From NCBI GenBank assembly GCA_037143135.1, contig JBAWZH010000001.1:9553-73552 (forward strand): a stretch of 64,000 nucleotides of DNA, given 5' to 3'. Of the stretch, positions 5,867 through 63,811 are shown in pieces (position 1 is the stretch's first letter; each line of letters begins with the position of its first letter). This DNA comes from a bacterium. GTDB taxonomy: Bacteria > Verrucomicrobiota > Kiritimatiellia > CAIKKV01 > CAITUY01. A program made the position numbers and the translations under genes. The notes under the pieces were generated by a model that was not told the DNA's origin, searched no databases, and saw only the letters and a list, made by a program, of their open reading frames with translations.

Positions 5867-6768
5867 GGCAACGCGCTGAAAGTGATACAAGCAGTTTTTA
5901 CCTGCTGCTTGACATGATGTGCAACGCATTTGGTGGCATAGTATTCATAGGCTTGCTAATTGCTATCCTGTCTAGCTCCATGAGTCGTCAGGATGCAGAA
6001 AAAAAGAGTAACAGCAGTCGAAACCTCGACAAGGTTGAACAGAAATTAGAGGCTGAACGCCTTGCTAGAGAGCAACAAGAACTTACAGCAGCTCAGAGAC
6101 ATTTGGAAGAAACGTTAAGAAAGATTAAGGGGCCATCTGGGGCAAGTCCAGCAACTGATCTTGCTTCTTTGATCTGTAGCAATGGATTATTACAATCTGC
6201 CTGTGATGCTCTTGCCGCTTCTAACTCATTGATATCTGTTTCAATTTTCGACTCCGAAACATCGATTGAGTTAAATTCAACATCAGCAGCCGACGTTGAA
6301 AAGCAAATCACCCGACTTCGTGCGGATCTTTTACAAAAGCAGGAGGCGTCCAAGGAGACGTTGAGATTACCGCGAGAACATCCTGTTACAGGCAAAAACG
6401 CCGCGTTTATCGGAATTAAGGATGGAAAGTTATATGCGATAAGTAATGTGTCAGGATCTCGTCCGCGTAACTACGACCGTGAGGATGTTGATGTCGAAAG
6501 TGGCCCAGGACGGGACGTGGTCGAGTTACGTAAAAACAGAGGGCAGTTCATTAAGCGGGGTTGCGAAGATGAGGGTAAGTTCGCACAGGCGCTCGCAAGT
6601 TTGAATAGTCATTACGAATTTGTGTCATTTGCAGTGTCTACTAATTCATTTGCTGAGTTTAATTATGTGAAAGCTATTTTTGTCGGGCATGGATTCTTAT
6701 ACAACTGGGTCGTCACAGAGGGAGCCATTGAAATTGTGGTTCAGGATGAACCACTCCGTGTTCAGTGA
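5863..6768 (+). CDS. Second ExbD/TolR-like bitopic coiled-coil protein
   Basis: N-terminal FYLLLDMMCNAFGGIVFIGLLIAIL (ExbD-like TM) followed by a coiled coil. 4-bp overlap (ATGA) with the upstream gene. Confidence 0.4.
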   Translation: MRQRAESDTSSFYLLLDMMCNAFGGIVFIGLLIAILSSSMSRQDAEKKSNSSRNLDKVEQKLEAERLAREQQELTAAQRHLEETLRKIKGPSGASPATDLASLICSNGLLQSACDALAASNSLISVSIFDSETSIELNSTSAADVEKQITRLRADLLQKQEASKETLRLPREHPVTGKNAAFIGIKDGKLYAISNVSGSRPRNYDREDVDVESGPGRDVVELRKNRGQFIKRGCEDEGKFAQALASLNSHYEFVSFAVSTNSFAEFNYVKAIFVGHGFLYNWVVTEGAIEIVVQDEPLRVQ

Positions 6769-6769
6769 G

Positions 6770-7903
6770 TTATTGATGGAAAGAGCGGGCGATCAACATC
6801 ATTAGGCGTAATTCCTCTTCGGTATAAGCGGCAAGTCGAATAAAAGAATTCGCGTTTTCGGTAAACGATTTCACGCGATCCGCCATAATACCTCTAATGA
6901 CTTGCTCATTTGACATACTTCGATCCCAAGCGCGCGCGGATCCCTCGAGAATTGCACAAAGTGATGCGTGTATAGATTCATTCTTGCGGACAATGTGTAG
7001 ATTGCTCTCCATAGTGATGTTCAGTGTGTGTTCGAGTTGATCCCAAGGTTGGGAATGACCCGTGGATCGTGTGCCTTTGCGCCCTATTAGCATAAATGCA
7101 CGTCCAGTCACATAAGCAGCATCACATGCGCCCTCAACATTGGATGGGCGAATGGCGGATAACTTATCAGCAAGGGAGGGAGATGCTGACATTTCACTTT
7201 CTGTCTGGGACGCGACTACAACCGTTACGTCTGCAAGGAGTCGACTGTAACTGGCTATTGCAGATGAATAGTACGGTGCATCTTCTTGTGCGTATATAAG
7301 TTCCATTTGTTTCTGTATTTTATTAGCCAGATTTGTTGAGTCGGCCACATTGGCGCTCTTCAAAAGAATTACCTGTACCTTTATGGATTGTTTGATTGCG
7401 TTCATAATGCGCTGATAAACACTAGTATCGGGCATCTCTAGATATGCGTTATGATCGTGCTCAATTCGCGTCAACTCTTCGATTCGTTCGCTATTGTCCA
7501 GATCTGATGTGTTTGAGGTGACCTTTCTTACTGCTGAGGCATTATCCATAGGTGTACGAACAGTTGAATTTGTGATGGATTCTACTCCATTAGGGAATTG
7601 ACTCGTCTCTGGGGAAACATTCTCAGGGTGCACTTCGGTCGATGTTTTGCCACTGGATGTGTTTGTTAGATTGGGGCTTGTATCTTTACTTGGATCGCTT
7701 GGTTCTTGCTTCCCTCCTGTGTAGTATTTGACACCTGTAAAGACAGCAAATAGAAGCCCTATAACGGTGATGATGATGATGCTGATGAGAAATAGGTTTG
7801 GAGCCGAGCTATTGCGATCCGGCTTCTTTGTGCTAAGCAGTTCTCTGGGAATACGTGGTGGCCTGGGTGGTGTCAGAGATTGGGTATATTTCTTGTCACT
7901 CAT
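6770..7903 (-). CDS. Hypothetical membrane-anchored protein with a Pro/Arg-rich N-terminus and a Ser/Thr-rich linker
   Basis: Single TM segment (LFLISIIIITVIGLLFAVF), followed by a low-complexity S/T/N-rich stretch and a ~200-aa globular C-terminal domain of unknown family. Confidence 0.4.
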   Translation of the reverse strand: MSDKKYTQSLTPPRPPRIPRELLSTKKPDRNSSAPNLFLISIIIITVIGLLFAVFTGVKYYTGGKQEPSDPSKDTSPNLTNTSSGKTSTEVHPENVSPETSQFPNGVESITNSTVRTPMDNASAVRKVTSNTSDLDNSERIEELTRIEHDHNAYLEMPDTSVYQRIMNAIKQSIKVQVILLKSANVADSTNLANKIQKQMELIYAQEDAPYYSSAIASYSRLLADVTVVVASQTESEMSASPSLADKLSAIRPSNVEGACDAAYVTGRAFMLIGRKGTRSTGHSQPWDQLEHTLNITMESNLHIVRKNESIHASLCAILEGSARAWDRSMSNEQVIRGIMADRVKSFTENANSFIRLAAYTEEELRLMMLIARSFHQ

Positions 7904-7966: not shown

Positions 7967-8506
7967 TCACTTTCGGATTGTCGACTTCTTCCCTTGATTT
8001 GGTTGCATCCTTGAGTTTCCCGTAAGTTTGCTCTCGCCGATTATTGGATAGAGAAATGCGGACACTTGAGCGGTTGTAGCAGTAGATGCGATGCCCGATG
8101 CTCGAATCGAAACTGGGGGTTGACCAGGCCTATCAACTGTGTAGTTCCCGCCGCTGGATTGCCGGACATAGATAGGCAGTTTCCCTGGCGTGTTGATAGT
8201 GGCACCACCACCAGATGACGGTCTAATGGTGACTGGTAGCTGCCCAGGCATCGACACCGTCGAGCCCCCTCCCGATACTGGCCTCACGTAGGTCGGCAAT
8301 TGCCCTGGGGTGCTGATTATTGCGCCTCCACCTTGATTAGGCCTTACAGAGATGGGTAGCTCACCCGGCCTATTGATCGTTACTCCACCTCCCTGTGCAG
8401 TCCTCACATAGGTCGGAAGCTTGCCGGGTTCTTGAATAATGTAGGATTGAGCTTCTACTGATAATGCGCAGACGAGAAGTGCCAGAATGAAAACTATATT
8501 TTTCAC
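7967..8506 (-). CDS. Secreted tandem-repeat protein
   Basis: Signal peptide MKNIVFILALLVCALSVEA, then seven ~20-aa repeats of the form PGxLP(T/I)YVRxxxGGGxTI(N/S)x. Confidence 0.5.
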   Translation of the reverse strand: MKNIVFILALLVCALSVEAQSYIIQEPGKLPTYVRTAQGGGVTINRPGELPISVRPNQGGGAIISTPGQLPTYVRPVSGGGSTVSMPGQLPVTIRPSSGGGATINTPGKLPIYVRQSSGGNYTVDRPGQPPVSIRASGIASTATTAQVSAFLYPIIGESKLTGNSRMQPNQGKKSTIRK

Positions 8507-8555
8507 AGGGAGGGAGCATCCTTCCGATTTAGGATTATGGATGATATTGACCCAG

Positions 8556-9095
8556 TTAGCTATTCAAATTCAGGCACACGGGGCAAGCACGGGGCAGATC
8601 CAGATCCTTAAACTGTTTGAAAACAATTCGAATGGATGCCTTGCTTTGTGGTGTGCGTTCCCTGTCGATCAAGGGATCTTGTTGCATTCGCCAGATTGAC
8701 TCATAACGCAGACTACCAAACCGAATTTCAAATGTTATGTCGGTGACGAAATGTAAACCGTTTGCGACATTCTCTAGCAATTGCTCGAGTCTATGTTTTT
8801 CTTTTGAGTTGGCGGTGGTGACTTTTCGCAACAGTTCCATGGCCTCTTGTTTTGCGATGTCATCTGCTACCATGTGTGAATTGTGACACAGCGCGGACAA
8901 TGGCGTTTCAGGAAGATCAACCTGTCCGCCACGACAACACATGACAAGATATGGCATCAAATCAGGGTTACTGTCTGCAATCGGTTGGAATAACCGTGAA
9001 GCTGTACGAATGGCGAGAGCCAATTCGTCCCAACATAAAACGTCCTTTTTCTCTTCTGATACCGGGATGATTTGTCCTGTATTCTCGTCATTCAT
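8556..9095 (-). CDS. Hypothetical protein
   Basis: 179-aa ORF with no recognisable motifs; the C-terminal CPVC may bind metal. Confidence 0.3.
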   Translation of the reverse strand: MNDENTGQIIPVSEEKKDVLCWDELALAIRTASRLFQPIADSNPDLMPYLVMCCRGGQVDLPETPLSALCHNSHMVADDIAKQEAMELLRKVTTANSKEKHRLEQLLENVANGLHFVTDITFEIRFGSLRYESIWRMQQDPLIDRERTPQSKASIRIVFKQFKDLDLPRACPVCLNLNS

Positions 9096-9743: not shown

Positions 9744-10133
9744 ATGAGTGATTATCATTATCAAACAGGCCGACGGCCTGAGTACAAATCTCGCATGGAA
9801 CGCCAAATCGGGGATTACTTGGCCAGCCGTCGCATTCCTTTCATCTATGAAAAACCGACGGCTGTTATAGATTCAGGCAAACTTAAAGTCTGGTATCCCG
9901 ACTTTAGTCTCAAATATGGCCTGATCATTGAATATTTTGGCATTACCGGAGACCCCCAATATCTCGCTAGTGCCCGGCACAAGCTTCGCGTCTATCATGA
10001 GAACCAGTTCGACGTGATCCCGCTATACCCCGCAGACATCGTGCCTGAATGGGAAAACAACCTTATGCATCGAATGGACACGGTGCTGGAGGGGCGGCTT
10101 CAGGATATTCGGTCGTGCTCCTTGATCGGCTGA
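9744..10133 (+). CDS. Hypothetical protein, possibly a PD-(D/E)xK-fold nuclease
   Basis: Spacing of acidic and lysine residues (D...IIEYFG...K) is weakly reminiscent of Vsr/DUF559-type nucleases. Weak. Confidence 0.3.
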   Translation: MSDYHYQTGRRPEYKSRMERQIGDYLASRRIPFIYEKPTAVIDSGKLKVWYPDFSLKYGLIIEYFGITGDPQYLASARHKLRVYHENQFDVIPLYPADIVPEWENNLMHRMDTVLEGRLQDIRSCSLIG

Positions 10134-10272
10134 ATAATGTCTCCCGATTTATCCCCGAGCATCCCATAAACCACCCATTAAATCCCTCATCCACCCATAT
10201 ATCGGAACTCATGTTTTGTGAGATCGTATTTCTGGGGAAGAGAAAGGTTGAATAGCAAAAAGGAGAGACAAT

Positions 10273-10986
10273 ATGAACACAATCAAAGACGACTTTAAGC
10301 TTGGGGTAATGGAGACTATAGCGGCCTCTTTTAACGGCGCATTTGCAATGAATGACATAACAACACTCGAGGACGACAGCAGGCTTATTGTTCCGATTTG
10401 CGGCTTAATCGAAGCATGCCTGCCAGTGCCCACGTTGCACATCGTCGAACGACCGTCTCTCATTCTTATTGAGGCGCATGCATTGGCGGTTCTTGGATCC
10501 CCTGGCAGCCTAATGAACTGCGTTCCCCAGGAACTTCTAGCGTTCTTTTTAAACGAAAAGGATCTGAAGGAGGGCGATGAACGCCTGAAGCTTAGCGCCA
10601 TGATCCTGCGGATGTGCGCTAACACATATCTTTCAAGTGTGCGCACTCAAGACGAACTGCTTGCCTCCGTCATCCAAGCCTCGAATATCAACGCCATGAT
10701 CACTAAGGCGGTCAAGGATCCGCTCGACGGGGAAATTTATGTCTCGGCGTATGTCTTTAGTGATTTTCTTTGTATCCCAAAGGAAGTTGACATGGTAGCG
10801 CAGGGTGTCTTGGATCACGCCAGTCGCATTCGTAAATTCATCCAGATCATGCGTCGCATGGTGCTTCCCGACACTACAAGGTGGGAAGATCTTGCGGCCG
10901 CCTTGTTGGTAGCAAATTCTGCACAGGCGTCTAGCGGGGAAGCCACTCCTTCGTCTTCCAACTCGTCGCCTCGTGCCACTCTGTAG
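10273..10986 (+). CDS. Hypothetical protein
   Basis: 237-aa ORF preceded by a GGAGAG RBS-like sequence. No motifs recognised. Confidence 0.35.
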   Translation: MNTIKDDFKLGVMETIAASFNGAFAMNDITTLEDDSRLIVPICGLIEACLPVPTLHIVERPSLILIEAHALAVLGSPGSLMNCVPQELLAFFLNEKDLKEGDERLKLSAMILRMCANTYLSSVRTQDELLASVIQASNINAMITKAVKDPLDGEIYVSAYVFSDFLCIPKEVDMVAQGVLDHASRIRKFIQIMRRMVLPDTTRWEDLAAALLVANSAQASSGEATPSSSNSSPRATL

Positions 10987-11017
10987 ATTGAAATGACAAA
11001 TATGAGGAGATGCAGCC

Positions 11018-11962
11018 GTGAAACCTCGAACTCCAGAAAGCGCAGGCATCGCTAAGTCAATTGCTCTCACCAGGAAACTGGCCTTATCCCAGTTCTCGGG
11101 CCAAAATGTTGCTATTGGTCCTGAGTTTCTGGCAGCAGGAATATTGAAATCTCTCCCTGATGGTGGCGAGTATTTGAAGAGTTGCGGCCTGGCGCATATC
11201 GCTACGTTTATGTCCAGTATGCCTGATGCTTTAGAGTCAGAAATGGACAAGGTTCCGCCATTACAAGTTACCGATGAACTGAATCTGCTGCTGAACAGCA
11301 AACTTAGCGGGTTTAAGGATGGAACGCTATCGGCTAAAGATGCTTTACGTATCCTTCTGGAAATTCCGGGCATCACTGATCGACTGGTAACGCTTTCTGA
11401 GGATATACAAAATAGGCAGAATCCGGTTATTGGTGAACGTGAAATAATGGCGAGGGTAACAAGGCTGTTTCAGTATGGTTACAGGCTAGCCCTGACGTAC
11501 TATTCTCCGGATTCGAAAATAGGCATCTCTGAATTCGCGACTGAACAACCGACTCAGTCTTTTCTTAAGGCCGCTGACGAGTATCGAAAGGAACGTGATG
11601 CCGTGCGCAGCATGATGTACAGCGGCCCCCGAAAACAAAAAATGTCCGCTTATGAACGATACATGCGTACCTATGGTCCCTTTACGGCTGATGTCGCCAC
11701 GGCGGTCGTTGTCAACGAGTTAACTCCTTATGTTTGTGATGGGTCGCTGATAACGGTGCGTGACATCGCTTACACGATTGCGCCTTATGATTACCACCGA
11801 ATGGCTGGCAAAGTAATTGAGGCGGTACAAACCTTGAAAAAGGATGCCCTTGTCCGCCTTTTCCCGGAGCCGGATTATTGTCAAATGTTCTCTGGCGTTC
11901 TGCCCACCGAGGCTCTGATCAGCGATTATACTCAATATCTTGGTAGATCGGCTGATTGGTAA
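11018..11962 (+). CDS. Hypothetical protein (N-terminus weakly Clp_N-like)
   Basis: The N-terminal AKSIALTRKLALSQFSGQNVAIGPEFLAAGILK is reminiscent of a Clp_N repeat. Weak. Confidence 0.35.
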   Translation: MKPRTPESAGIAKSIALTRKLALSQFSGQNVAIGPEFLAAGILKSLPDGGEYLKSCGLAHIATFMSSMPDALESEMDKVPPLQVTDELNLLLNSKLSGFKDGTLSAKDALRILLEIPGITDRLVTLSEDIQNRQNPVIGEREIMARVTRLFQYGYRLALTYYSPDSKIGISEFATEQPTQSFLKAADEYRKERDAVRSMMYSGPRKQKMSAYERYMRTYGPFTADVATAVVVNELTPYVCDGSLITVRDIAYTIAPYDYHRMAGKVIEAVQTLKKDALVRLFPEPDYCQMFSGVLPTEALISDYTQYLGRSADW

Positions 11963-12181
11963 CTCTGGTGGATGACGCGCGGAGGGTGGCCGGTGCTCGA
12001 CCATCCGGCACCCACGAACAAAAATGGCCAGCATGAAAAATCTTCGAGTGATTCATTTCAGGATTGGATGTTTATATGGTGTCGGACCTGACGAAAGCCA
12101 TGTTTGAGGGAAGCCGCCGACCCAGTCACCGATCTAGTCGAGCGACCCAGTCGTGAGGTGAAATAAGGTTAGAAATAGTGC

Positions 12182-12210
12182 TTGACTCAGAAAGCGTACG
12201 CATCGTAAGC
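12182..12210 (+). promoter_or_regulatory. Putative sigma70-type promoter upstream of the HTH regulator gene (TTGACT, 17 nt, TAAGCT)
   Basis: ttgactcagaaagcgtacgcatcgtaagct lies immediately upstream of the 12218 start. Contains the palindrome GCGTACGC, a possible operator. Confidence 0.3.
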
Positions 12211-12217
12211 TGACAGC

Positions 12218-12571
12218 ATGAACGATTCATTAGGCAAACGAATACGTGAGCTTCGAGAAGCCAAGGATCTGTCGCTGAGAGATCTGGCTAAGAAGATTAA
12301 CGTTTCAGCTGCATTCCTGTCAGATGTTGAGTTAGAACGGCGTTATCCCTCCGAGGATAAGCTCTTGCTGCTTGCTACGGAACTTGGTGTCCCGACCGAG
12401 GATCTTCGGCGTTTCGACACGCGGGTGCCAGTGAAAGCTTTGCAGGAGGCATCCCGCCGAGACCCGACGGTAGGAATGGCACTTCGTTCCATTCTAAAAT
12501 CTGGAATCTCGTTCGATGAATTGAATGAGATCGCTCAGAAGAAAAAGGCGGAGGAGGTTGACGAAAAGTGA
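12218..12571 (+). CDS. capH: XRE/Cro-C1-type HTH transcriptional regulator (CapH-like)
   Basis: LRELREAKDLSLRDLAKKINVSAAFLSDVE is a canonical HTH_XRE. Its stop overlaps the next gene, which has an HEXXH motif. Sits directly upstream of a CBASS-type operon. Confidence 0.65.
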   Translation: MNDSLGKRIRELREAKDLSLRDLAKKINVSAAFLSDVELERRYPSEDKLLLLATELGVPTEDLRRFDTRVPVKALQEASRRDPTVGMALRSILKSGISFDELNEIAQKKKAEEVDEK

Positions 12572-54254: not shown

Positions 54255-54995
54255 TTAAAGCTTTCGGGCGAAATCATCCGTGATCTCGTTATACGCCGCG
54301 CGTACAGCTTCCTCTGATGGATTGAGGTAAACGCTGGTGGCCCGGAGTGTTCTATGGCCAACCTGTTTCTGAACAATCGGCAGAGGTAGCTTGTAGCTGT
54401 GGATATGATGCATGATATGCGAGTGGCGCATGGAATGAACCGTGATCTGGCGCAGTTTTCGGCCTTTGGAGTCCTGGCCATACTCCCGGTTGAATCCGGC
54501 TTTAATGACATAGCGCTGGAATATCTGCCGTATTCGATTCTCACTGTAATGCCTGGCGGATCGAGTGGATCGCCGGAATAGATATTCATCCGGGCTGGTC
54601 ACACTTTCCGTTCGTTTCAACATCCGACCTTCCCTCCTGAGGAGGCTTTTGATCTCATTGATGACACCTTCCGGAAGGTGACTGGTCCGCTTGTGGCCCG
54701 TCTTGGTGTTGTCTGCTGGGATAAAGACGCTGTTCCGGCTGAAATCAAGGTGTTTGACCTGGATCCTGACAAACTCACCTACACGGCATCCAAGGTGGTA
54801 AATCACTCTGAACATGAGTTTGTGCCGGTAATCCTCTATACCATCAAGGAGTTTCTGCCATTCATCCAAGGTCAGGTACCGAATGGTCTCCCCAAAACGC
54901 TCATATTTCGGGGAATGTTTCACATTTGACGCTTTTGGGCCGATTCCGGCCTGTTTCACGCTTGGGAATGATTCGTTTTCTGTCATTTTCTTCAC
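54255..54995 (-). CDS. Tyrosine site-specific recombinase (catalytic domain only; short)
   Basis: R (HLGCRVGE), HSMRHSH, QKQVGHRTLRATSVYL (catalytic Y). Only 246 aa, with no N-terminal core-binding domain. Confidence 0.65.
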   Translation of the reverse strand: MKKMTENESFPSVKQAGIGPKASNVKHSPKYERFGETIRYLTLDEWQKLLDGIEDYRHKLMFRVIYHLGCRVGEFVRIQVKHLDFSRNSVFIPADNTKTGHKRTSHLPEGVINEIKSLLRREGRMLKRTESVTSPDEYLFRRSTRSARHYSENRIRQIFQRYVIKAGFNREYGQDSKGRKLRQITVHSMRHSHIMHHIHSYKLPLPIVQKQVGHRTLRATSVYLNPSEEAVRAAYNEITDDFARKL

Positions 54996-58194: not shown

Positions 58195-58887
58195 TTGGAT
58201 GTATATATCCCGCATCTAACCCGGCGGGTTTCTGCCAATGCAAAGATATATAAAGGGGCTTTGTGTCTTATCACTGTACTACTCAGGAATGACAACAACA
58301 TGGCAAACTATTCATTTATGACCGATCAAGGTTGGCGGGTTACGGAATACCGTCCATTCAGCCCAAGCTATGCGGTTTTGCATACGCCGGGAATGAAGGA
58401 GGAACGCAAATCCGCCTATGCAACTGCATTGTATTCTCATAGTGAGACAACCAATCTGGCGCCGGATGAAAACTCATCAGGGGACTTGCTCAAAACTCTC
58501 ACAGGCCAACAATTGAAGTTCGATTATTTCTCGGAGGATGTGCTGAAACAATTGCTCAAAGAGCGGGTGACTATACGCGACAGGAACCGTGCCGCGATCC
58601 AAGGCCGGCTTTCGGATCTTTCGGGCGAAATATACGGAGCAGTAATACTCAAAACACCCGATGGGGATAAACGCAGGCAGGGCTTGGAAAAGACCAAGAT
58701 GGATCTTGAAAAACAACTTCGCGACGAAGATGTTACGCTCTGGAAGGATGCCGTCGAACTTAGACGGGAACTCATTATTGCTGCCAAGAAATATGAAGGC
58801 ACAAAACTCAGGACCGGACTATTTGCTATGCCGCTGACTCAGGATGACCAACATAAAATCGAAGGATACGGTAACTTTTCAGGATAG
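58195..58887 (+). CDS. Hypothetical protein upstream of the HerA-like ATPase
   Basis: 230-aa ORF with coiled-coil character. Confidence 0.35.
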   Translation: MDVYIPHLTRRVSANAKIYKGALCLITVLLRNDNNMANYSFMTDQGWRVTEYRPFSPSYAVLHTPGMKEERKSAYATALYSHSETTNLAPDENSSGDLLKTLTGQQLKFDYFSEDVLKQLLKERVTIRDRNRAAIQGRLSDLSGEIYGAVILKTPDGDKRRQGLEKTKMDLEKQLRDEDVTLWKDAVELRRELIIAAKKYEGTKLRTGLFAMPLTQDDQHKIEGYGNFSG

Positions 58888-60514
58888 ATGCATCGCGCTT
58901 CGCCCAATTCTGGGGAAACAGGTCGATCAGATATGGCAATGCTACCTTTTTCAGGATGAAGATGGAAAATTCGAACTAGAGCAACAGCTTGAGCTCATGG
59001 TCAATTCGGCACTGAATACCGATGTGCAGGATAAAGCCCCAGTCTTTCCGCCGCCAACCGCCGAGGTTGCCGCCGGGGAGATTGCCCTCGGTGATGTCGA
59101 ATATAATCATAAGCCATATTGTCCCTTCGGGCTCAGGAAAGACGAACTGATGAAGCACGTCGGGCTCTTTGGTCAAACCGGTACCGGTAAAACCAATGCC
59201 GCCCATCTTCTGGCCTCCCAAATTCACAAACTGGGCACTCCGATCTGGGTGCTTGAATTCAAAAGGGGTTGGAGGGAATTGCGAGCATTGCCGGAATTCC
59301 AGGATTTATTGGTATTTACCGTCGGGCGTAATGACATTGCCCCCATTTCTTTCAACCCGCTCATCCCGGTGGAGGGCGTGGACCCGCATACATGGATAAA
59401 GAAGATCTCCCACACAATTTCCAACGCGTTCTTTCTCGGGCAGGGAGTTCTCTATTTGCTGGAGGTTGTTTTGGCAAAGCTATACGAGGAATATGGGATC
59501 TTTGAGGGTAAACCGGAGCGATATCCCACATTTCGGGATGTCTTGCGAATGCTGCAGAATTACCCGATCCGAAGTGGTAGGGAAACCCTTTGGCTGTCCT
59601 CAGCGCTAAGGGCGATACATTCGCTGTGTTTTGGCCAGATGGACCGGATTGTTAATGCCCAGGGAAATGACAGTCTCAAATCCCTGATCAATCATTCTGT
59701 CGTTTTTGAAATGGACTCCCTTGGCCATGAGGACAAGGTTTTCTTCACCGAATGTGTCATGCTCTGGGCCTATGAATATTACCAGGCGAGGCCGGTTAGG
59801 GAACAACTCCAACTGGTGATGTTCCTTGAGGAGGCCCATAACATCGCCGGGCGACAGGGACGGGATGATTCCGGGTCTAAGATCATTGTGGATCAGATGT
59901 TCCGTCAGAGCCGTGAATATGGGATTGGATTGGTCATCATAGACCAGATGCCCTCCGCCATCTCGCGTACGGCCCTGGCCAATGTGCATTGCCTCATCGC
60001 TATGGGTGTAAAAGAGAAGGCGGATGCCGTGGCTTTGACAGGTTCCATGCTGTTGGATCGGGAGCAGGGCGACATGCTCGGGCGACTCAGTCTGGGATCC
60101 GCGATTGTTAAGTTGCAGCGAAAGGGGCTGATTGATCCCTTTATCTTGAAGACCCCCTTGATGCCAGTGAAGAAGGGAACTATGTCGGATGATATGATCC
60201 GGGATATGATGCAGGTATATGTCCGGCCCGTTGAACATTCTGGAGAGGCATCCCATTCGACTTCTCAGCCGAAACTCTCGGAATCAGAAATGGCACTATT
60301 GGTGGATGTGGCGATCATGCCCGACTCCGGCGTGGTGGCGCGATATACAAGATGCAAACTGTCCGGCCGACAGGGCGACAAGGCCAAACGATCCCTGATA
60401 GAAATGGGATTCATCGAGGAAGTTGAACAGCTTACCCCAAGGGGGCGTTCAAAAATGATTCGGCTTACCGAAAAAGGAACGAGTTTTCTGGAAGCCAGGC
60501 CATCTGAAATATAA
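58844..60514 (+). CDS. HerA/FtsK-superfamily (DUF87/AAA_10-like) ATPase with a C-terminal winged-helix domain
   Basis: Walker A GLFGQTGTGKTNAAHLL. Walker B-like LVIIDQMP. C-terminal wHTH (RYTRCKLSGRQGDKAKRSLIEMGFIEE). The start is uncertain: 58844 overlaps upstream by 44 bp; an alternative Met is at 58994. Confidence 0.55.
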   Translation: MTNIKSKDTVTFQDRCIALRPILGKQVDQIWQCYLFQDEDGKFELEQQLELMVNSALNTDVQDKAPVFPPPTAEVAAGEIALGDVEYNHKPYCPFGLRKDELMKHVGLFGQTGTGKTNAAHLLASQIHKLGTPIWVLEFKRGWRELRALPEFQDLLVFTVGRNDIAPISFNPLIPVEGVDPHTWIKKISHTISNAFFLGQGVLYLLEVVLAKLYEEYGIFEGKPERYPTFRDVLRMLQNYPIRSGRETLWLSSALRAIHSLCFGQMDRIVNAQGNDSLKSLINHSVVFEMDSLGHEDKVFFTECVMLWAYEYYQARPVREQLQLVMFLEEAHNIAGRQGRDDSGSKIIVDQMFRQSREYGIGLVIIDQMPSAISRTALANVHCLIAMGVKEKADAVALTGSMLLDREQGDMLGRLSLGSAIVKLQRKGLIDPFILKTPLMPVKKGTMSDDMIRDMMQVYVRPVEHSGEASHSTSQPKLSESEMALLVDVAIMPDSGVVARYTRCKLSGRQGDKAKRSLIEMGFIEEVEQLTPRGRSKMIRLTEKGTSFLEARPSEI

Positions 60515-60698
60515 CAGGCCGGCGAAGAGAGAGTGCGCCGTTTACGTCGAGGTGTTAATGCCTTCACATCAGGATTCATCATTGTTGTCACGCAACAACA
60601 ACAACAAAAACTTTTTAAAGAAAAGAAGAAGAAGAGAAGAGGTTCACTGCTCACATTACTGGATGATCTGACTCATCTGACGCGTTCAGCGCACTCTC

Positions 60699-61796
60699 TT
60701 ACTGGAACCGGGCGGAAAAGACGGCGCTCAGTTCCTCGGGTGAGACTAATGGCTCAATCCTGTTTGTAAAGGTCCGATCTACTTTGGCGCTGACCAGCAG
60801 GATCAGGCCAAGGGATGCCAAGTATCCCAGGGTTGAATAGAATTGTGTGTAACCGTAGGGTTCCTCCCCGCAAGCCCGACTCAGGGTGCTATAATGCTGA
60901 TACACCGACTTCACCAGTTTTGAAGACTCTTCCATGCTTGCCTTAAGAATGAGGAGCGCCTTGTCATTGGTACCCACCAGGACATCTTTCACCACATCTT
61001 CCCGTGCCTTGGCAAAACACTCATCCACGGTTGGAGCCTCCCCGGTGGAACAGTAAAGGAGGGCCTTGATGGCGACCCTGACATCGCCGTTTGTATTCTT
61101 GGCCGTCATGGCGGCGATTTCTTCCAACAACCCAGGAGCAACCCTCTTTAGGCCTGTCTCTGCCCGGTCTTTCAGGATGTCTAGGATCTCACTGGCTGAG
61201 TAGGTTCTGAATGATATGACTTCTGGCTGGAGTGAGGAGCGAGTGCTCTCATCCAGTTGCTTAAGGTAGCGGTGGTTATTGCTGAGGAGGACCAGGGAAT
61301 AGCGGTTGGGGCTTCGGCTCAGGAAGTACAGGATATCCCGCTTGAGGTCATTTTCGACCAGCATGTCGGCCTCGTCGAGGACGATGACCGCCGGGCCGGG
61401 GATTTCCTTCTCGAATCGTTCGCATAGCTCGGAATAGGCGTACCCCCGCGGCTTGGCTTTCAAGATGGCGGCCAATGCCTTAAAGCTGGAATTATGGATC
61501 CGGCAATTCACGCCAAAGAAGGGGAGTTTTAGCTTTTCAGAAAAGGCTTTTTCAAGGTACCGAAATGTCAGGGTTTTCCCGCAACCCCTGGCACCGAATA
61601 CCATCATGTTTCGGGCAATCCCGCTACCCTGATAGCGGACCAGGCAGTCCACAATCCGTTTAACTTCAGGCCGAATGACCGGCCGGTCCGGGATGTGGTC
61701 GAAGCTGAAAACCCGGAAGTCCTTTACACTGGATGCGACGCGTTCAGCCTCCTGACGCGACTGCTCAATGTATGCCAATAACTCTTCCTGACCCAT
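60699..61796 (-). CDS. Orc1/Cdc6-type AAA+ initiator-like ATPase
   Basis: VFGARGCGKTLTF (Walker A), VIVLDEADML (Walker B), GDVRVAIKALLY (the Orc1/Cdc6 DARRAIDLLR-like motif). An origin-like repeat region lies just upstream. Confidence 0.65.
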   Translation of the reverse strand: MGQEELLAYIEQSRQEAERVASSVKDFRVFSFDHIPDRPVIRPEVKRIVDCLVRYQGSGIARNMMVFGARGCGKTLTFRYLEKAFSEKLKLPFFGVNCRIHNSSFKALAAILKAKPRGYAYSELCERFEKEIPGPAVIVLDEADMLVENDLKRDILYFLSRSPNRYSLVLLSNNHRYLKQLDESTRSSLQPEVISFRTYSASEILDILKDRAETGLKRVAPGLLEEIAAMTAKNTNGDVRVAIKALLYCSTGEAPTVDECFAKAREDVVKDVLVGTNDKALLILKASMEESSKLVKSVYQHYSTLSRACGEEPYGYTQFYSTLGYLASLGLILLVSAKVDRTFTNRIEPLVSPEELSAVFSARFQ

Positions 61797-61972
61797 TCTC
61801 TTTTGACGTATTCACCTCACTCTTCAAGATGAATCGAAGTTAATAAACCTTTCGCTTTCTTGCTGAAATGGTGGCCAAAATAATTAATTTCCATACTTCT
61901 CATTATCCCCCCTCTCTCCTCAAAATTAATTAATCTCATTACAAATCAACAACTTACACAACAAAATCAATT

Positions 61973-62153
61973 CACATCATAAAATCAATACTCGTCGTCA
62001 CACGTCGTCGTCCCGTCGTCACGCGAACGCCAAAGCGACCGCGCACTCCCTTACTTCCACACCCTATCTTTCATCTCCCTGCCCCCAGAAATCATTACCA
62101 ATAACATCCCCAGATTCCCATCATTACACATCATAACTTCAATACTCGTCGTC
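61973..62153. repeat. 27-bp direct repeat CACATCATAA(AA/CT)TCAATACTCGTCGTC, two copies 154 bp apart, inside AT-rich DNA upstream of the Orc1/Cdc6-like gene
   Basis: Copies at 61973-62000 and 62127-62153 (25/27 identical). Confidence 0.7.
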
Positions 62154-62294
62154 GTCCGTCGTCGTCCGTCGTCGTCCGTCCGTTCGTCCGTCCGTTCGTC
62201 CGTCCGTTCGTCCGTCGTCCGTTCGTCCGTCCGTTCGTCCGTCCGTTCGTCCGTCGTTCGTCCGTCCGTCGTCCGTCGTCCGTCCGTCGTCCGT
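62146..62294. repeat. Degenerate dodecamer microsatellite (CGTCCGTCCGTT / CGTCGTCGTCCGT units, ~12 copies)
   Basis: Read directly from the sequence. The antisense ORF made of GRTN repeats is a translation artefact. Confidence 0.85.
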
Positions 62295-63289
62295 TACTAT
62301 AAATATGGCACCCGCAGGTGCCCTTTACTTTCGTCTCCGTTATATCATCCATCCGTAGGCGTATCCGAGGCCTCCATCAGCGCGCCGTAGCGCGCCTATC
62401 TCCATTTGCCCAAAGTTGGCCCCGCCAACCTGATATTTGGACAAGCTGTTATCCGCTAACAGCGATTCTTCCGCTTGCCTCCAATACCTCTCTTGCTCGA
62501 TTAACGAGCCAAAGATTATCTGTTTTCTTCACTGAAGCCGCTTCGGCTTCCTGAATCATATCTTTGACAAGCTTCAAGAGCTCTTTGAGTCGCTTTGTGT
62601 CTTCCATTCTCTGAGCACCTCCTTTTACTGATTTTTCCATGCCGGAGGCCGCGGGCTTCGATAGATAAATTTTTCGGTTACCGCAGTGACCGAAAGATTT
62701 ACTGAGCGAAGCCTGCTTCGTTCGGGAAAAATCAGGGAGGTGCGAAGCCAGAAATCACACAATGCGGCAAACGAGCGCCGCTTGTCTTTTCGGCTTCCTT
62801 GCCTTCCTGGTTCCCTTATAGATAGTTGCCCGCGCGCGTATTCATAACCGCCCGCAGGCGGCTAACGTTAGGGGTGGGCGAAGCCCCCTCGCATTAGCGT
62901 GCCGCAGCACGCCTAGATTTCGTCGTCAGTCGTCATATGCGCGCCGCAGCGCGTCTATCATTTCCCCTTCGGTCGAAGACCGAAATCCGGGTCCCGTTCC
63001 CTGACACGGGCTCACAATGCCATTCAAATGACCGTGTCATTTCATAAGCGCCCTCTGGAGCCAGATTCAGAGCGGTACCTCGAATCTGGTGACGAGCGGC
63101 AGCGGATCACCGAACGGACCGAAAGCCATTGGGTTGAGGTTGAGTGTCCGTTACCCTCCCACGAAACCTCCCCTTGGGTTTCGTGTCCGGAGGACAATTC
63201 GTCCCCCATCTTCCCTTCATCCATCTCTCGCTATATCCCTAAACAAGACAACGCCCCGACGGGGGCCCGTCAAGGCGTCGCTTGTTTCC

Positions 63290-63811
63290 TTACCAGCTTA
63301 TGCAAGGGTAGGGCTTCAGCCCCTCTTTCTGTTTCCTGATTCCCAATTCAAAGAAACTGTACACAGAATCCAACCACGATACCGCCCACCTGAACTCGTC
63401 AATTTCGCTGGTTTTTATCCAGCCACCTTCCGGGACTGTATTCCTGATAACCTGCAAAATGGCTTCTGCCGTTGTTTTCTGGTTCTGAAGCACCTCCTGC
63501 TGCTGACTTTCACTTTCAAAGGGTTCATTTCTGGCCACACTTACCAGATACCGGCATCCAATTTCGTTTAGCCGTTCAAAGTTTCCCTCAAAGTCATATT
63601 CATCCGTAGACCCCTCGGCCCAATACTTTTCGGGGAATAGCACTCTCAAGATATGCTCCTCAAGAACCATACTGATACTTGTTCTCAAATACCCATCTTC
63701 GCCAGCATCAATAGCCCATCCGGTAAACTGAGCTTTCTGCTCCTCCTCTGTCTTTGTATCCCATTCGAGATAAACATCCGTTCCCATTTTTTCATTCAAA
63801 CCTCCTTTCAA
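63290..63811 (-). CDS. Hypothetical protein
   Basis: 173-aa ORF of acidic, soluble character. Confidence 0.35.
   Translation of the reverse strand: MKGGLNEKMGTDVYLEWDTKTEEEQKAQFTGWAIDAGEDGYLRTSISMVLEEHILRVLFPEKYWAEGSTDEYDFEGNFERLNEIGCRYLVSVARNEPFESESQQQEVLQNQKTTAEAILQVIRNTVPEGGWIKTSEIDEFRWAVSWLDSVYSFFELGIRKQKEGLKPYPCISW

Follow-up and report, generated by a model that had tools for sequence, protein, structure and literature searches.

Orc1/Cdc6 initiators are proteins of archaea and eukaryotes, and bacterial replicons use DnaA or Rep. The question raised here is what a long non-coding region does when it lies directly upstream of an Orc1/Cdc6-like gene in a bacterium. The region occupies positions 61797-63300 of a 64-kb stretch of contig JBAWZH010000001.1 from a member of Kiritimatiellia (the whole stretch is called the window), and the gene, which encodes an AAA+ initiator of 365 aa, lies at 60699-61796 on the minus strand, its start 1 bp from the interval. 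By comparison with 165 loci fetched for this purpose (designated by L numbers), most of the region proves to belong to an ordered module that is shared with relatives. Tentatively, we read the region as the non-coding control region of an integrative mobile element, and most likely as its replication origin, in bacteria of the Planctomycetota-Verrucomicrobiota-Chlamydiota (PVC) group (Kiritimatiellae, Verrucomicrobiota and Lentisphaerae), with an unclassified structured RNA beside it.

A conserved module beside the Orc1/Cdc6-like gene

The ordered module recurs in 12 distinct loci with Orc1 proteins of 58-94% identity, where it invariably lies beside a cluster of genes for Orc1, a HerA-like ATPase and p195, a coiled-coil protein of 195 aa. 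These loci are the window, L002 (the same as L159-161), L061, L062, L064, L065, L071/72, L007, L008/73/74, L009, L155/156 and L157. Read along the minus strand of the window, the module consists of the terminator of an upstream gene for a 165-aa protein, an element of ~156 nt with predicted structure, GC hairpins in variable number with purine-rich linkers, 1-3 units that each contain a GTTCGCG pair (or two pairs) and then GACGACG or GACGG, an AT-rich stretch of 120-190 bp, a G-string box enclosed by an inverted repeat, and a promoter-like TTTATWAA box with a leader, in this order. It is located 5′ of orc1 in the window, L002, L061, L062, L064, L065, L155 and L159.

The AT-rich DNA, which was rightly noticed in the original prediction (GC 0.335 at 61800-61999), includes the lowest-GC 150 nt of the whole window (61840-61989, GC 0.30). 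The stretch at 61875-61993, a candidate unwinding element, is G-free on the plus strand and C-free on the minus strand and carries three TTGATTT motifs; it is the longest G-free run of the window, 119 nt against 44 nt for the next longest. This asymmetry is general, as the C fraction of the equivalent segment is 5-15% on the module strand in 12/12 loci. DnaA-trio-like single-strand sites were considered for the AT-rich DNA and rejected, since no trinucleotide periodicity is seen in 10/12 loci.

On one side of this DNA, the GACGACG box and a GTTCGCG-type direct-repeat pair are located at 61991-62046 on the minus strand, and the block GTTCGCGgtc..GCGTTCGCGTGTtGACGACG is kept in 10 aligned loci. 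In the window, the pair comprises a perfect GTTCGCG (62022-62028) and a GTGCGCG with one mismatch (62040-62046), 18 bp apart; across the loci, each unit has 2-4 direct copies with a core of 7-9 bp and a spacing of 17-21 bp. By count, GTTCGCG is at the chance level in the 64-kb window (7 observed vs 7.9 expected), as is the hairpin signature CCTGCGGG described below (3 observed vs 1.8 expected), and both owe their significance to a position conserved across loci. On the other side, a G-string box (minus strand GAGGAGAGAGGGGGGATAATGAGAAGTATGG), kept in the 10-locus alignment, is present at 61879-61934 with a 12-bp inverted repeat, ATTAATTAATTT / AAATTAATTATT, in which 11/12 positions match in the window (0/200 shuffles as good). 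Generally, the box GAG.GGGGGGAATGAGAAATCA stands inside an inverted repeat of 8-15 bp, which is significant in 9/12 loci and has arm sequences that vary by locus, and the two together are found 30-90 bp upstream of the promoter-like box. An operator made of inverted half-iterons was not found, the arms (ATTAATTAATTT; GATTTGATTT in relatives) being unrelated to GTTCGCG.

The orc1 5′ leader, GTGAGGTGAATACGTCAAAAGAGA-ATG (61797-61821), and the promoter-like box GGTTTATTAAC (61839-61849), both on the minus strand, are conserved even in relatives without the rest of the module. A box of this kind, (A/G)ATTTATAAA(C/G)C, is also seen 35-55 nt upstream of several genes in related elements (L139, 11840-11890; L141, 7960-7985 and 11540-11580), again with no sigma-70 consensus, and may be a promoter element of these elements.

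Structured core element, GC hairpins and lineage-specific additions

The best-supported structured element of the region, at 63046-63202, was missing from the features listed in the original prediction. A covariance model of 156 positions and 40 pairs, made by aligning ten copies with MAFFT and deriving the structure with RNAalifold, detects it in 12 distinct loci at 83-164 bits and, apart from a partial second copy in L157, finds nothing further in ~1.3 Mb of related loci. Modeled on the plus strand, the element has two domains and four supported helices; the minus-strand model has six helices and 40 pairs. On the minus strand, 85.8% of the cells are paired and 18 pairs are changed on two sides vs 10.2 ± 1.7 in shuffles (0/500; covariation 0.230; slid controls 27-49%), and on the plus strand 92.5% are paired and 17 pairs are changed on two sides vs 9.0 ± 1.6 (0/500; covariation 0.352; slid controls 38-55%); these comparisons comprise only 11-13 sequences of two clades, and related sequences can beat shuffles without real structure. 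The structure is probably on the plus strand, reading away from orc1, because this strand has the better consensus energy (-18.7 vs -9.6 and -20.3 vs -10.4 kcal/mol for plus vs minus in the same alignments), an excess of G.U cells over A.C cells (~14 to 3) and the lower single-sequence z-score (-4.25 vs -2.39). In another alignment, of 11 copies on the plus strand, the consensus energy is -30.8 kcal/mol.

No promoter or terminator consistently frames the element on either strand. The search of the window against Rfam at gathering thresholds yields 0 hits, and at E<=10 the segment 61500-64000 yields four sub-threshold matches (E 1.4-5.8), of which two are on the terminator hairpin, one is in the 165-aa gene, one is at 62985-63037 and none is on the core at 63046-63202. 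The original prediction had allowed that a known RNA family might account for the hairpins of the region, and no Rfam family explains them. In IMG/VR, a 16-mer of the core has 12 exact matches, none of which scores as the element (best 17 bits), and no core element accompanies the distant homologues of the upstream 165-aa gene (L162-L165). We read the 156-nt element, part of the same module, as a non-coding RNA of no assigned class or as a structure of single-stranded DNA. It is a candidate for a new structured RNA motif with covariation support, independent of whether the module is an origin. A partial second copy (55 bits), which has the first domain only, is found in L157 at 6666-6786 upstream of a 170-aa gene, so that the first domain can stand alone. 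Beyond the core, the upstream 165-aa gene (63290-63787) reaches into the right end of the interval (63248-63300) with its stop codon and terminator hairpin. The intrinsic-terminator-like hairpin that ends this gene is at 63248-63281 on the minus strand, and its equivalent precedes the core in L009, L008, L155 and L159.

The GC hairpins of the module carry a fixed CCTGCGGG or CTATC signature, and the members of both kinds named in the original prediction are present. First, the two CCCGCAGG hairpins are located at 62307-62322 (GGCACC-CGCA-GGTGCC, CCTGCGGG type) and at 62848-62861. Second, the three copies of the GC hairpin+CTATC element are at 62375-62400, 62892-62917 and 62934-62959 (2 matches to a strict pattern vs 0.00 expected). 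In form, this hairpin+CTATC unit resembles the repetitive extragenic palindromic (REP) units of enterobacteria. In the window and the 165 fetched loci, every copy falls within the module, with none elsewhere in the 64 kb or in 158 other loci; dispersal of the type of REP units or bacterial interspersed mosaic elements (BIME) is thus not seen in this set. Third, a nested hairpin, TTTGCCCAAA..GGCC..GGCC..TTTGGACAA, at 62405-62444 has a stem with compensatory changes across loci, and is conserved after the core in L062, L064, L065, L071, L009, L157 and L061. The number and the order of hairpins differ between loci. Among the 49 tetraloop hairpins in the modules of 10 loci, 18 are C(TGCG)G on the minus strand, with stems that differ in sequence. 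The functional strand of these hairpins is not readable from their stems, which are almost wholly Watson-Crick, and wobble pairs proved uninformative as an indicator (3 G.T vs 2 A.C). Their minus-strand loops, which we take to be of the UNCG/YNMG type, point opposite to the favored strand of the core. As a side observation, L008, L007, L009 and L064 have the hairpin GAGATATTCGGTGAACCGA immediately ahead of the core element, and in L008 it is repeated several times at 10130-12250 (reverse strand), in ~2 kb of non-coding DNA with many short hairpins between two repeat units.

Three other features of the region, the 48-nt repeat, the microsatellite and the 52-aa cassette, are, as far as the compared loci tell, recent lineage changes by duplication, slippage and insertion, and not core parts. 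The direct repeats that the original prediction described as 27-bp copies 154 bp apart do exist and measure 48 nt with 85% identity (61966-62013 and 62120-62167). They do not stand as iterons: the junction of the GACGACG box with the AT-rich DNA has been duplicated in this lineage, with G-rich, C-poor DNA between the copies, and the direct repeats that are conserved belong to another motif, GTTCGCG, spaced 17-21 bp apart. The whole repeat/AT-rich unit is tandemly duplicated in L002, L071, L007 and L008. The predicted dodecamer microsatellite is likewise real (62149-62295; Tandem Repeats Finder period 12, TCGTCCGTCCGT, 11.8 copies; (ACGG ACGG ACGA)n on the minus strand). With CGTC as its underlying period-4 unit, it forms the longest A-free run of the window (151 nt). 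It is absent from the relatives compared; at its position L071 has only GACGGACGGACGG and L062 has GACGACGACGGACG, which gives the array the appearance of a GACG box expanded by slippage. The ENA contig L001 matches the window exactly across 11 kb apart from 27 additional bases within the microsatellite, reflecting either true length variation or assembly ambiguity.

The third addition is a cassette inserted at 62449-62735 on the minus strand, composed of a 52-aa gene (62449-62607), a GGAGG Shine-Dalgarno sequence (62619-62623) and a long leader hairpin (62628-62735). It occurs only in the window and L061, where it splits the hairpin array. As the original prediction stated, no open reading frame (ORF) spans the region; the 52-aa gene inside it is nevertheless genuine: it is annotated in the ENA record, and the differences between it and its L061 homologue are distributed 9/4/15 by codon position, with an indel of exactly one codon. 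The stem of the cassette leader shows a compensatory change from GCTTCG/CGAAGC to GCCCCG/CGGGGC between the window and L061. In L061 (4633-5283), a second partial leader copy also precedes a different small ORF, and this looks like small-gene cassettes inserted in the hairpin array.

The initiator gene, its partners and the role of the region

The Orc1/Cdc6-like protein aligns with TIGR02928 over nearly its full length (E 3.6e-37). Its top match in PDB is Sulfolobus Cdc6-1 (2qby_A, E 1.7e-18), its top plasmid relative is Cdc6 of a 7.6-kb Picrophilus plasmid (35% identity), and across 31 sequences its Walker A, Walker B and sensor positions do not vary. The gene is, judging from its homologues, bacterial and not archaeal. 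Close homologues are in metagenome-assembled genomes (MAGs) labeled Kiritimatiellae, Verrucomicrobiota and Victivallales/Lentisphaerae, and those of Planctomycetota are 42-50% identical; an archaeal or Borg-like origin of the window was considered and dropped in view of these bacterial homologues. With 226 matches at E<=0.001 in a protein search and 268 relatives confirmed in a metagenome scan, Orc1/Cdc6 homologues are widespread in Planctomycetota, Verrucomicrobiota and Kiritimatiellae, in most cases with linkage to a HerA-like ATPase. In a scan of IMG/VR with the Orc1 protein, no viral contig was found to encode a relative.

Together with the genes for p195 (58300-58887, plus strand) and a HerA/FtsK-superfamily ATPase of 556 aa with a C-terminal winged helix (58844-60514, plus strand; Pfam DUF87/HerA_C; NCBIfam CedD, E 2.6e-25), orc1 constitutes a three-gene set conserved across PVC bacteria (58300-61796 in the window; L012, L022, L031, L101 and others). 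The set is convergent in the Kiritimatiellae-type clade and co-directional in the order orc1>p195>herA in Planctomycetota, and an integrase often adjoins it. Among 142 Orc1 loci, 67 have a HerA-like match and 51 have a p195 match, many of the remaining loci being short contigs. The ATPase matches models of the DNA-translocating ATPase CedD and of TraG P-loop proteins. The predicted structure of p195 is a beta-hairpin plus a long helical hairpin (pLDDT, the predicted local distance difference test, 74), for which Foldseek against PDB returns only generic coiled coils (best E 0.06); a sequence search of PDB with p195 gives low-complexity matches only. PADLOC has no specific match for Orc1 or p195 and only generic HerA matches for the ATPase (best E 1.9e-13).

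The orc1 locus sits among defense genes, and the window is a mosaic of defense-type and mobile genes that include an integrase (54255-54995), SSB, RadC, an Mrr endonuclease, methylases, an SNF2 helicase and a KAP NTPase. Its first part, 1-47000, is dense in defense genes: a Sel1-repeat protein with an Hsp70-like ATPase, an SNF2 helicase, a second HerA/FtsK ATPase, an N6/N4 methylase, a ResIII helicase with a TnsA-like nuclease domain, a KAP NTPase and a TatD DNase. The HerA-like and Orc1-like genes converge, and the gap between their 3′ ends contains short (CAA)n and (AAG)n runs at 60593-60641.

From conservation, order, composition and covariation, we infer the following scheme of protein binding, melting, transcription and replication. 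A DNA-binding protein, for which the initiator and the ATPase winged helix are both candidates, would sit on the GTTCGCG pair and on the GACGACG box next to it, to one side of the AT-rich stretch; the G-string box within the inverted repeat would be a second site across this stretch. The strand-asymmetric AT-rich DNA of 120-190 bp between the two sites would then melt, and the neighboring initiator gene would be read from its own promoter-like box, with the ~156-nt multi-helix element and the GC hairpins being distal to the repeats. An origin is suggested by the direct repeats on one side of AT-rich DNA that coincides with the GC minimum, by the significant inverted repeat around the G-rich box near the promoter on its other side, by the adjacent initiator gene and by the element that bears an integrase, SSB and RadC; this combination has the classical design of an origin and its initiator gene. 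To this extent, the idea of an origin with an unwinding element, or of structured RNA elements, put forward in the original prediction fits the ordered module of 12 loci and the covarying element, and only its specific assignments fail.

A special case is L157, which has an intact module followed by a 203-aa protein (8471-9082) with two winged-helix-like halves in the place of Orc1 and then by a MazE antitoxin gene, and which retains the ATPase (47% identical) and a p195 homologue. The double winged helix is the architecture of iteron-plasmid initiators (10.1101/2024.09.03.610885), and the replacement is thus also readable in favor of an origin, because an initiator-type protein occupies the same slot.

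A number of observations weigh against an origin. As GTTCGCG is unchanged in L157 without Orc1, the repeats are probably not specific for Orc1; they are also few (2-4), direct and single-sided, unlike the inverted origin recognition boxes (ORBs) of archaea, and just one perfect copy is present in the window module. In L071, L007, L009 and L008, the three-gene cluster is inverted, so that the module is 5′ of p195 and the rest of the cluster separates it from orc1 by 2.5-3 kb, and the upstream genes keep their place where the cluster inverts. About half of the close Orc1 loci (L003, L004, L005, L063, L066, L069 and L139-L142) have no module within 6-8 kb, and the Orc1 loci without a module have no consistent AT-rich neighbor. 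The cumulative GC skew turns from positive to negative at the module, the reverse of a usual bacterial origin, and the flanking genes converge on the module and do not diverge; GC skew was rejected as evidence for an origin, its opposite sign being explained by gene orientation. There are no DnaA boxes (TTATCCACA, <=1 mismatch) in 61797-63300, and a sigma-70 promoter scan of the region gives 0 sites. In the whole window, TTATCCACA-like 9-mers (<=1 mismatch) are enriched (27 vs 12.9 +/- 3.9 expected, 0/100 shuffles as high), mostly on the minus strand at 19-31 kb and none in the studied region. A scan for tRNA and tmRNA found none, and the interval has no blastn match among PLSDB plasmids and INPHARED phages.

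Several of these observations would suit a regulatory region that is not an origin, an alternative to which we give a limited chance. The region would then regulate the Orc1/HerA/p195 cluster through promoters and operators, and at least one structured non-coding RNA or leader would govern the expression or immunity state of the element; the direct repeats and the inverted repeat would be operators, and the AT-rich DNA would be a promoter or silencing DNA. In favor of this reading, the promoter-like box has the inverted repeat and the G-string box 30-90 bp to its 5′ side, the covarying element and many hairpins are conserved, and the 52-aa gene has a structured leader with compensatory changes. 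Moreover, the module is fixed relative to the upstream small-gene operon where the cluster inverts, many Orc1 loci do without it, and GC skew and gene orientation are unlike those of an origin. However, the core has no consistent promoter or terminator frame on either strand, and nearly C-free AT-rich DNA of 120-190 bp and tandem repeat/AT-rich units are unusual for operators. Since the inserted cassette splits the hairpin array in the window and L061, the array is not a single RNA.

It is improbable, in our estimate, that the repeats are instead a cis-acting loading or transfer site for the HerA/FtsK-like translocase, similar to clt or to a packaging site, and not a replication start. In favor of such a site, the repeats persist in L157 with Orc1 replaced and with p195 and the ATPase, including its C-terminal winged helix, kept. 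In the four inverted loci, the module is directly 5′ of the p195-ATPase operon, and the CedD and TraG matches of the ATPase and the integrase, SSB and RadC of the element are consistent with DNA transfer. However, no membrane, pilus or capsid genes are seen near the cluster, no IMG/VR viral contig encodes an Orc1 relative, and half of the close loci have the trio without the repeats; the strand-asymmetric AT-rich stretch and the structured core would also be left unexplained. Mostly non-functional debris, that is, hairpins like REP units or miniature inverted-repeat transposable elements (MITEs) and slippage products in a long intergenic gap, is very improbable. The microsatellite, the 48-nt repeat and the cassette are indeed lineage-specific and variable, the hairpins do differ in number and order and the hairpin+CTATC form is similar to REP units, but this form is found solely inside the module, the block order is conserved across 58-94% Orc1 identity and the compensatory changes in the core are well above controls.

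A replication origin thus remains our tentative reading. A more elaborate version of it, to which we attach rather little probability, is that this family of integrative elements replicates with an archaeal-type Orc1/Cdc6 without MCM, together with the HerA/FtsK-like ATPase of the element and a coiled-coil adaptor; the region would be the origin, and the 156-nt RNA, of no described family, would serve origin function or copy control.

Comparison with known origins and transfer sites

PVC bacteria have few genetic tools, and the module, if the proposal is true, is a possible replicon for them. As an origin, it would also be a defined cis element with which to ask how an ORC-type initiator works with bacterial machinery and which helicase is loaded. 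Full-text literature searches found no description of Orc1/Cdc6-bearing elements in PVC bacteria. The features of the region are set here against four known systems.

First, archaeal origins adjacent to orc1 have an AT-rich element and repeats, some with a G-string, and haloarchaeal ORBs end in a G-string (PMC3528665). The region is similar in that it adjoins a full-length Orc1/Cdc6 homologue and has an AT-rich element, short repeats and a G-string by a dyad. It differs in its bacterial host, in the GTTCGCG repeats being direct and single-sided and not inverted around the AT-rich element, and in an inverted repeat that encloses the G-string box and not the unwinding element. A set of at least two ORB repeats inverted around the AT-rich element was not found; moreover, no MCM gene is seen among the neighbors examined, and the repeats persist without Orc1.

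Second, the origins of iteron plasmids (pPS10, F and R6K) likewise have direct repeats, about two helical turns apart, by an AT-rich stretch and an initiator gene. The tandem duplication of the repeat unit in some loci and the double winged-helix protein in the initiator position of L157 add to this likeness. Unlike them, the region has only 2-4 short repeats and no DnaA boxes, its promoter inverted repeat is unrelated to the direct repeats, and the initiator in the window is an AAA+ Orc1 and not a Rep protein.

Third, the winged helix of Streptomyces TraB reportedly binds the clt locus of 8-bp repeats in conjugative elements. What is shared with it is an integrative element that encodes an ATPase of the FtsK/HerA type, with a winged helix at the C terminus, and that has short direct repeats nearby; the ATPase here is nearer to HerA/DUF87 than to FtsK.

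Fourth, ColE1 RNA II and countertranscript RNAs (ctRNAs) provide a parallel for a structured RNA-like element by a putative origin, with a gene for a small helical 52-aa protein nearby. In contrast to ColE1, the structure is favored on the strand that reads away from the AT-rich DNA, and it has no overlap with the initiator leader; a primer RNA of the ColE1 type, directed towards the origin, was not found, as consensus folding and wobble pairs favor the opposite strand. The only ctRNA/sar matches in Rfam are sub-threshold and fall on the neighboring terminator hairpin.

Therefore, the region, as its sequence features have it, resembles an iteron- or ORB-type origin and yet lacks defining features of each family. 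What we rate as new is an origin-like control region that appears tied to an archaeal-type initiator in bacteria and accompanied by an unclassified structured element.

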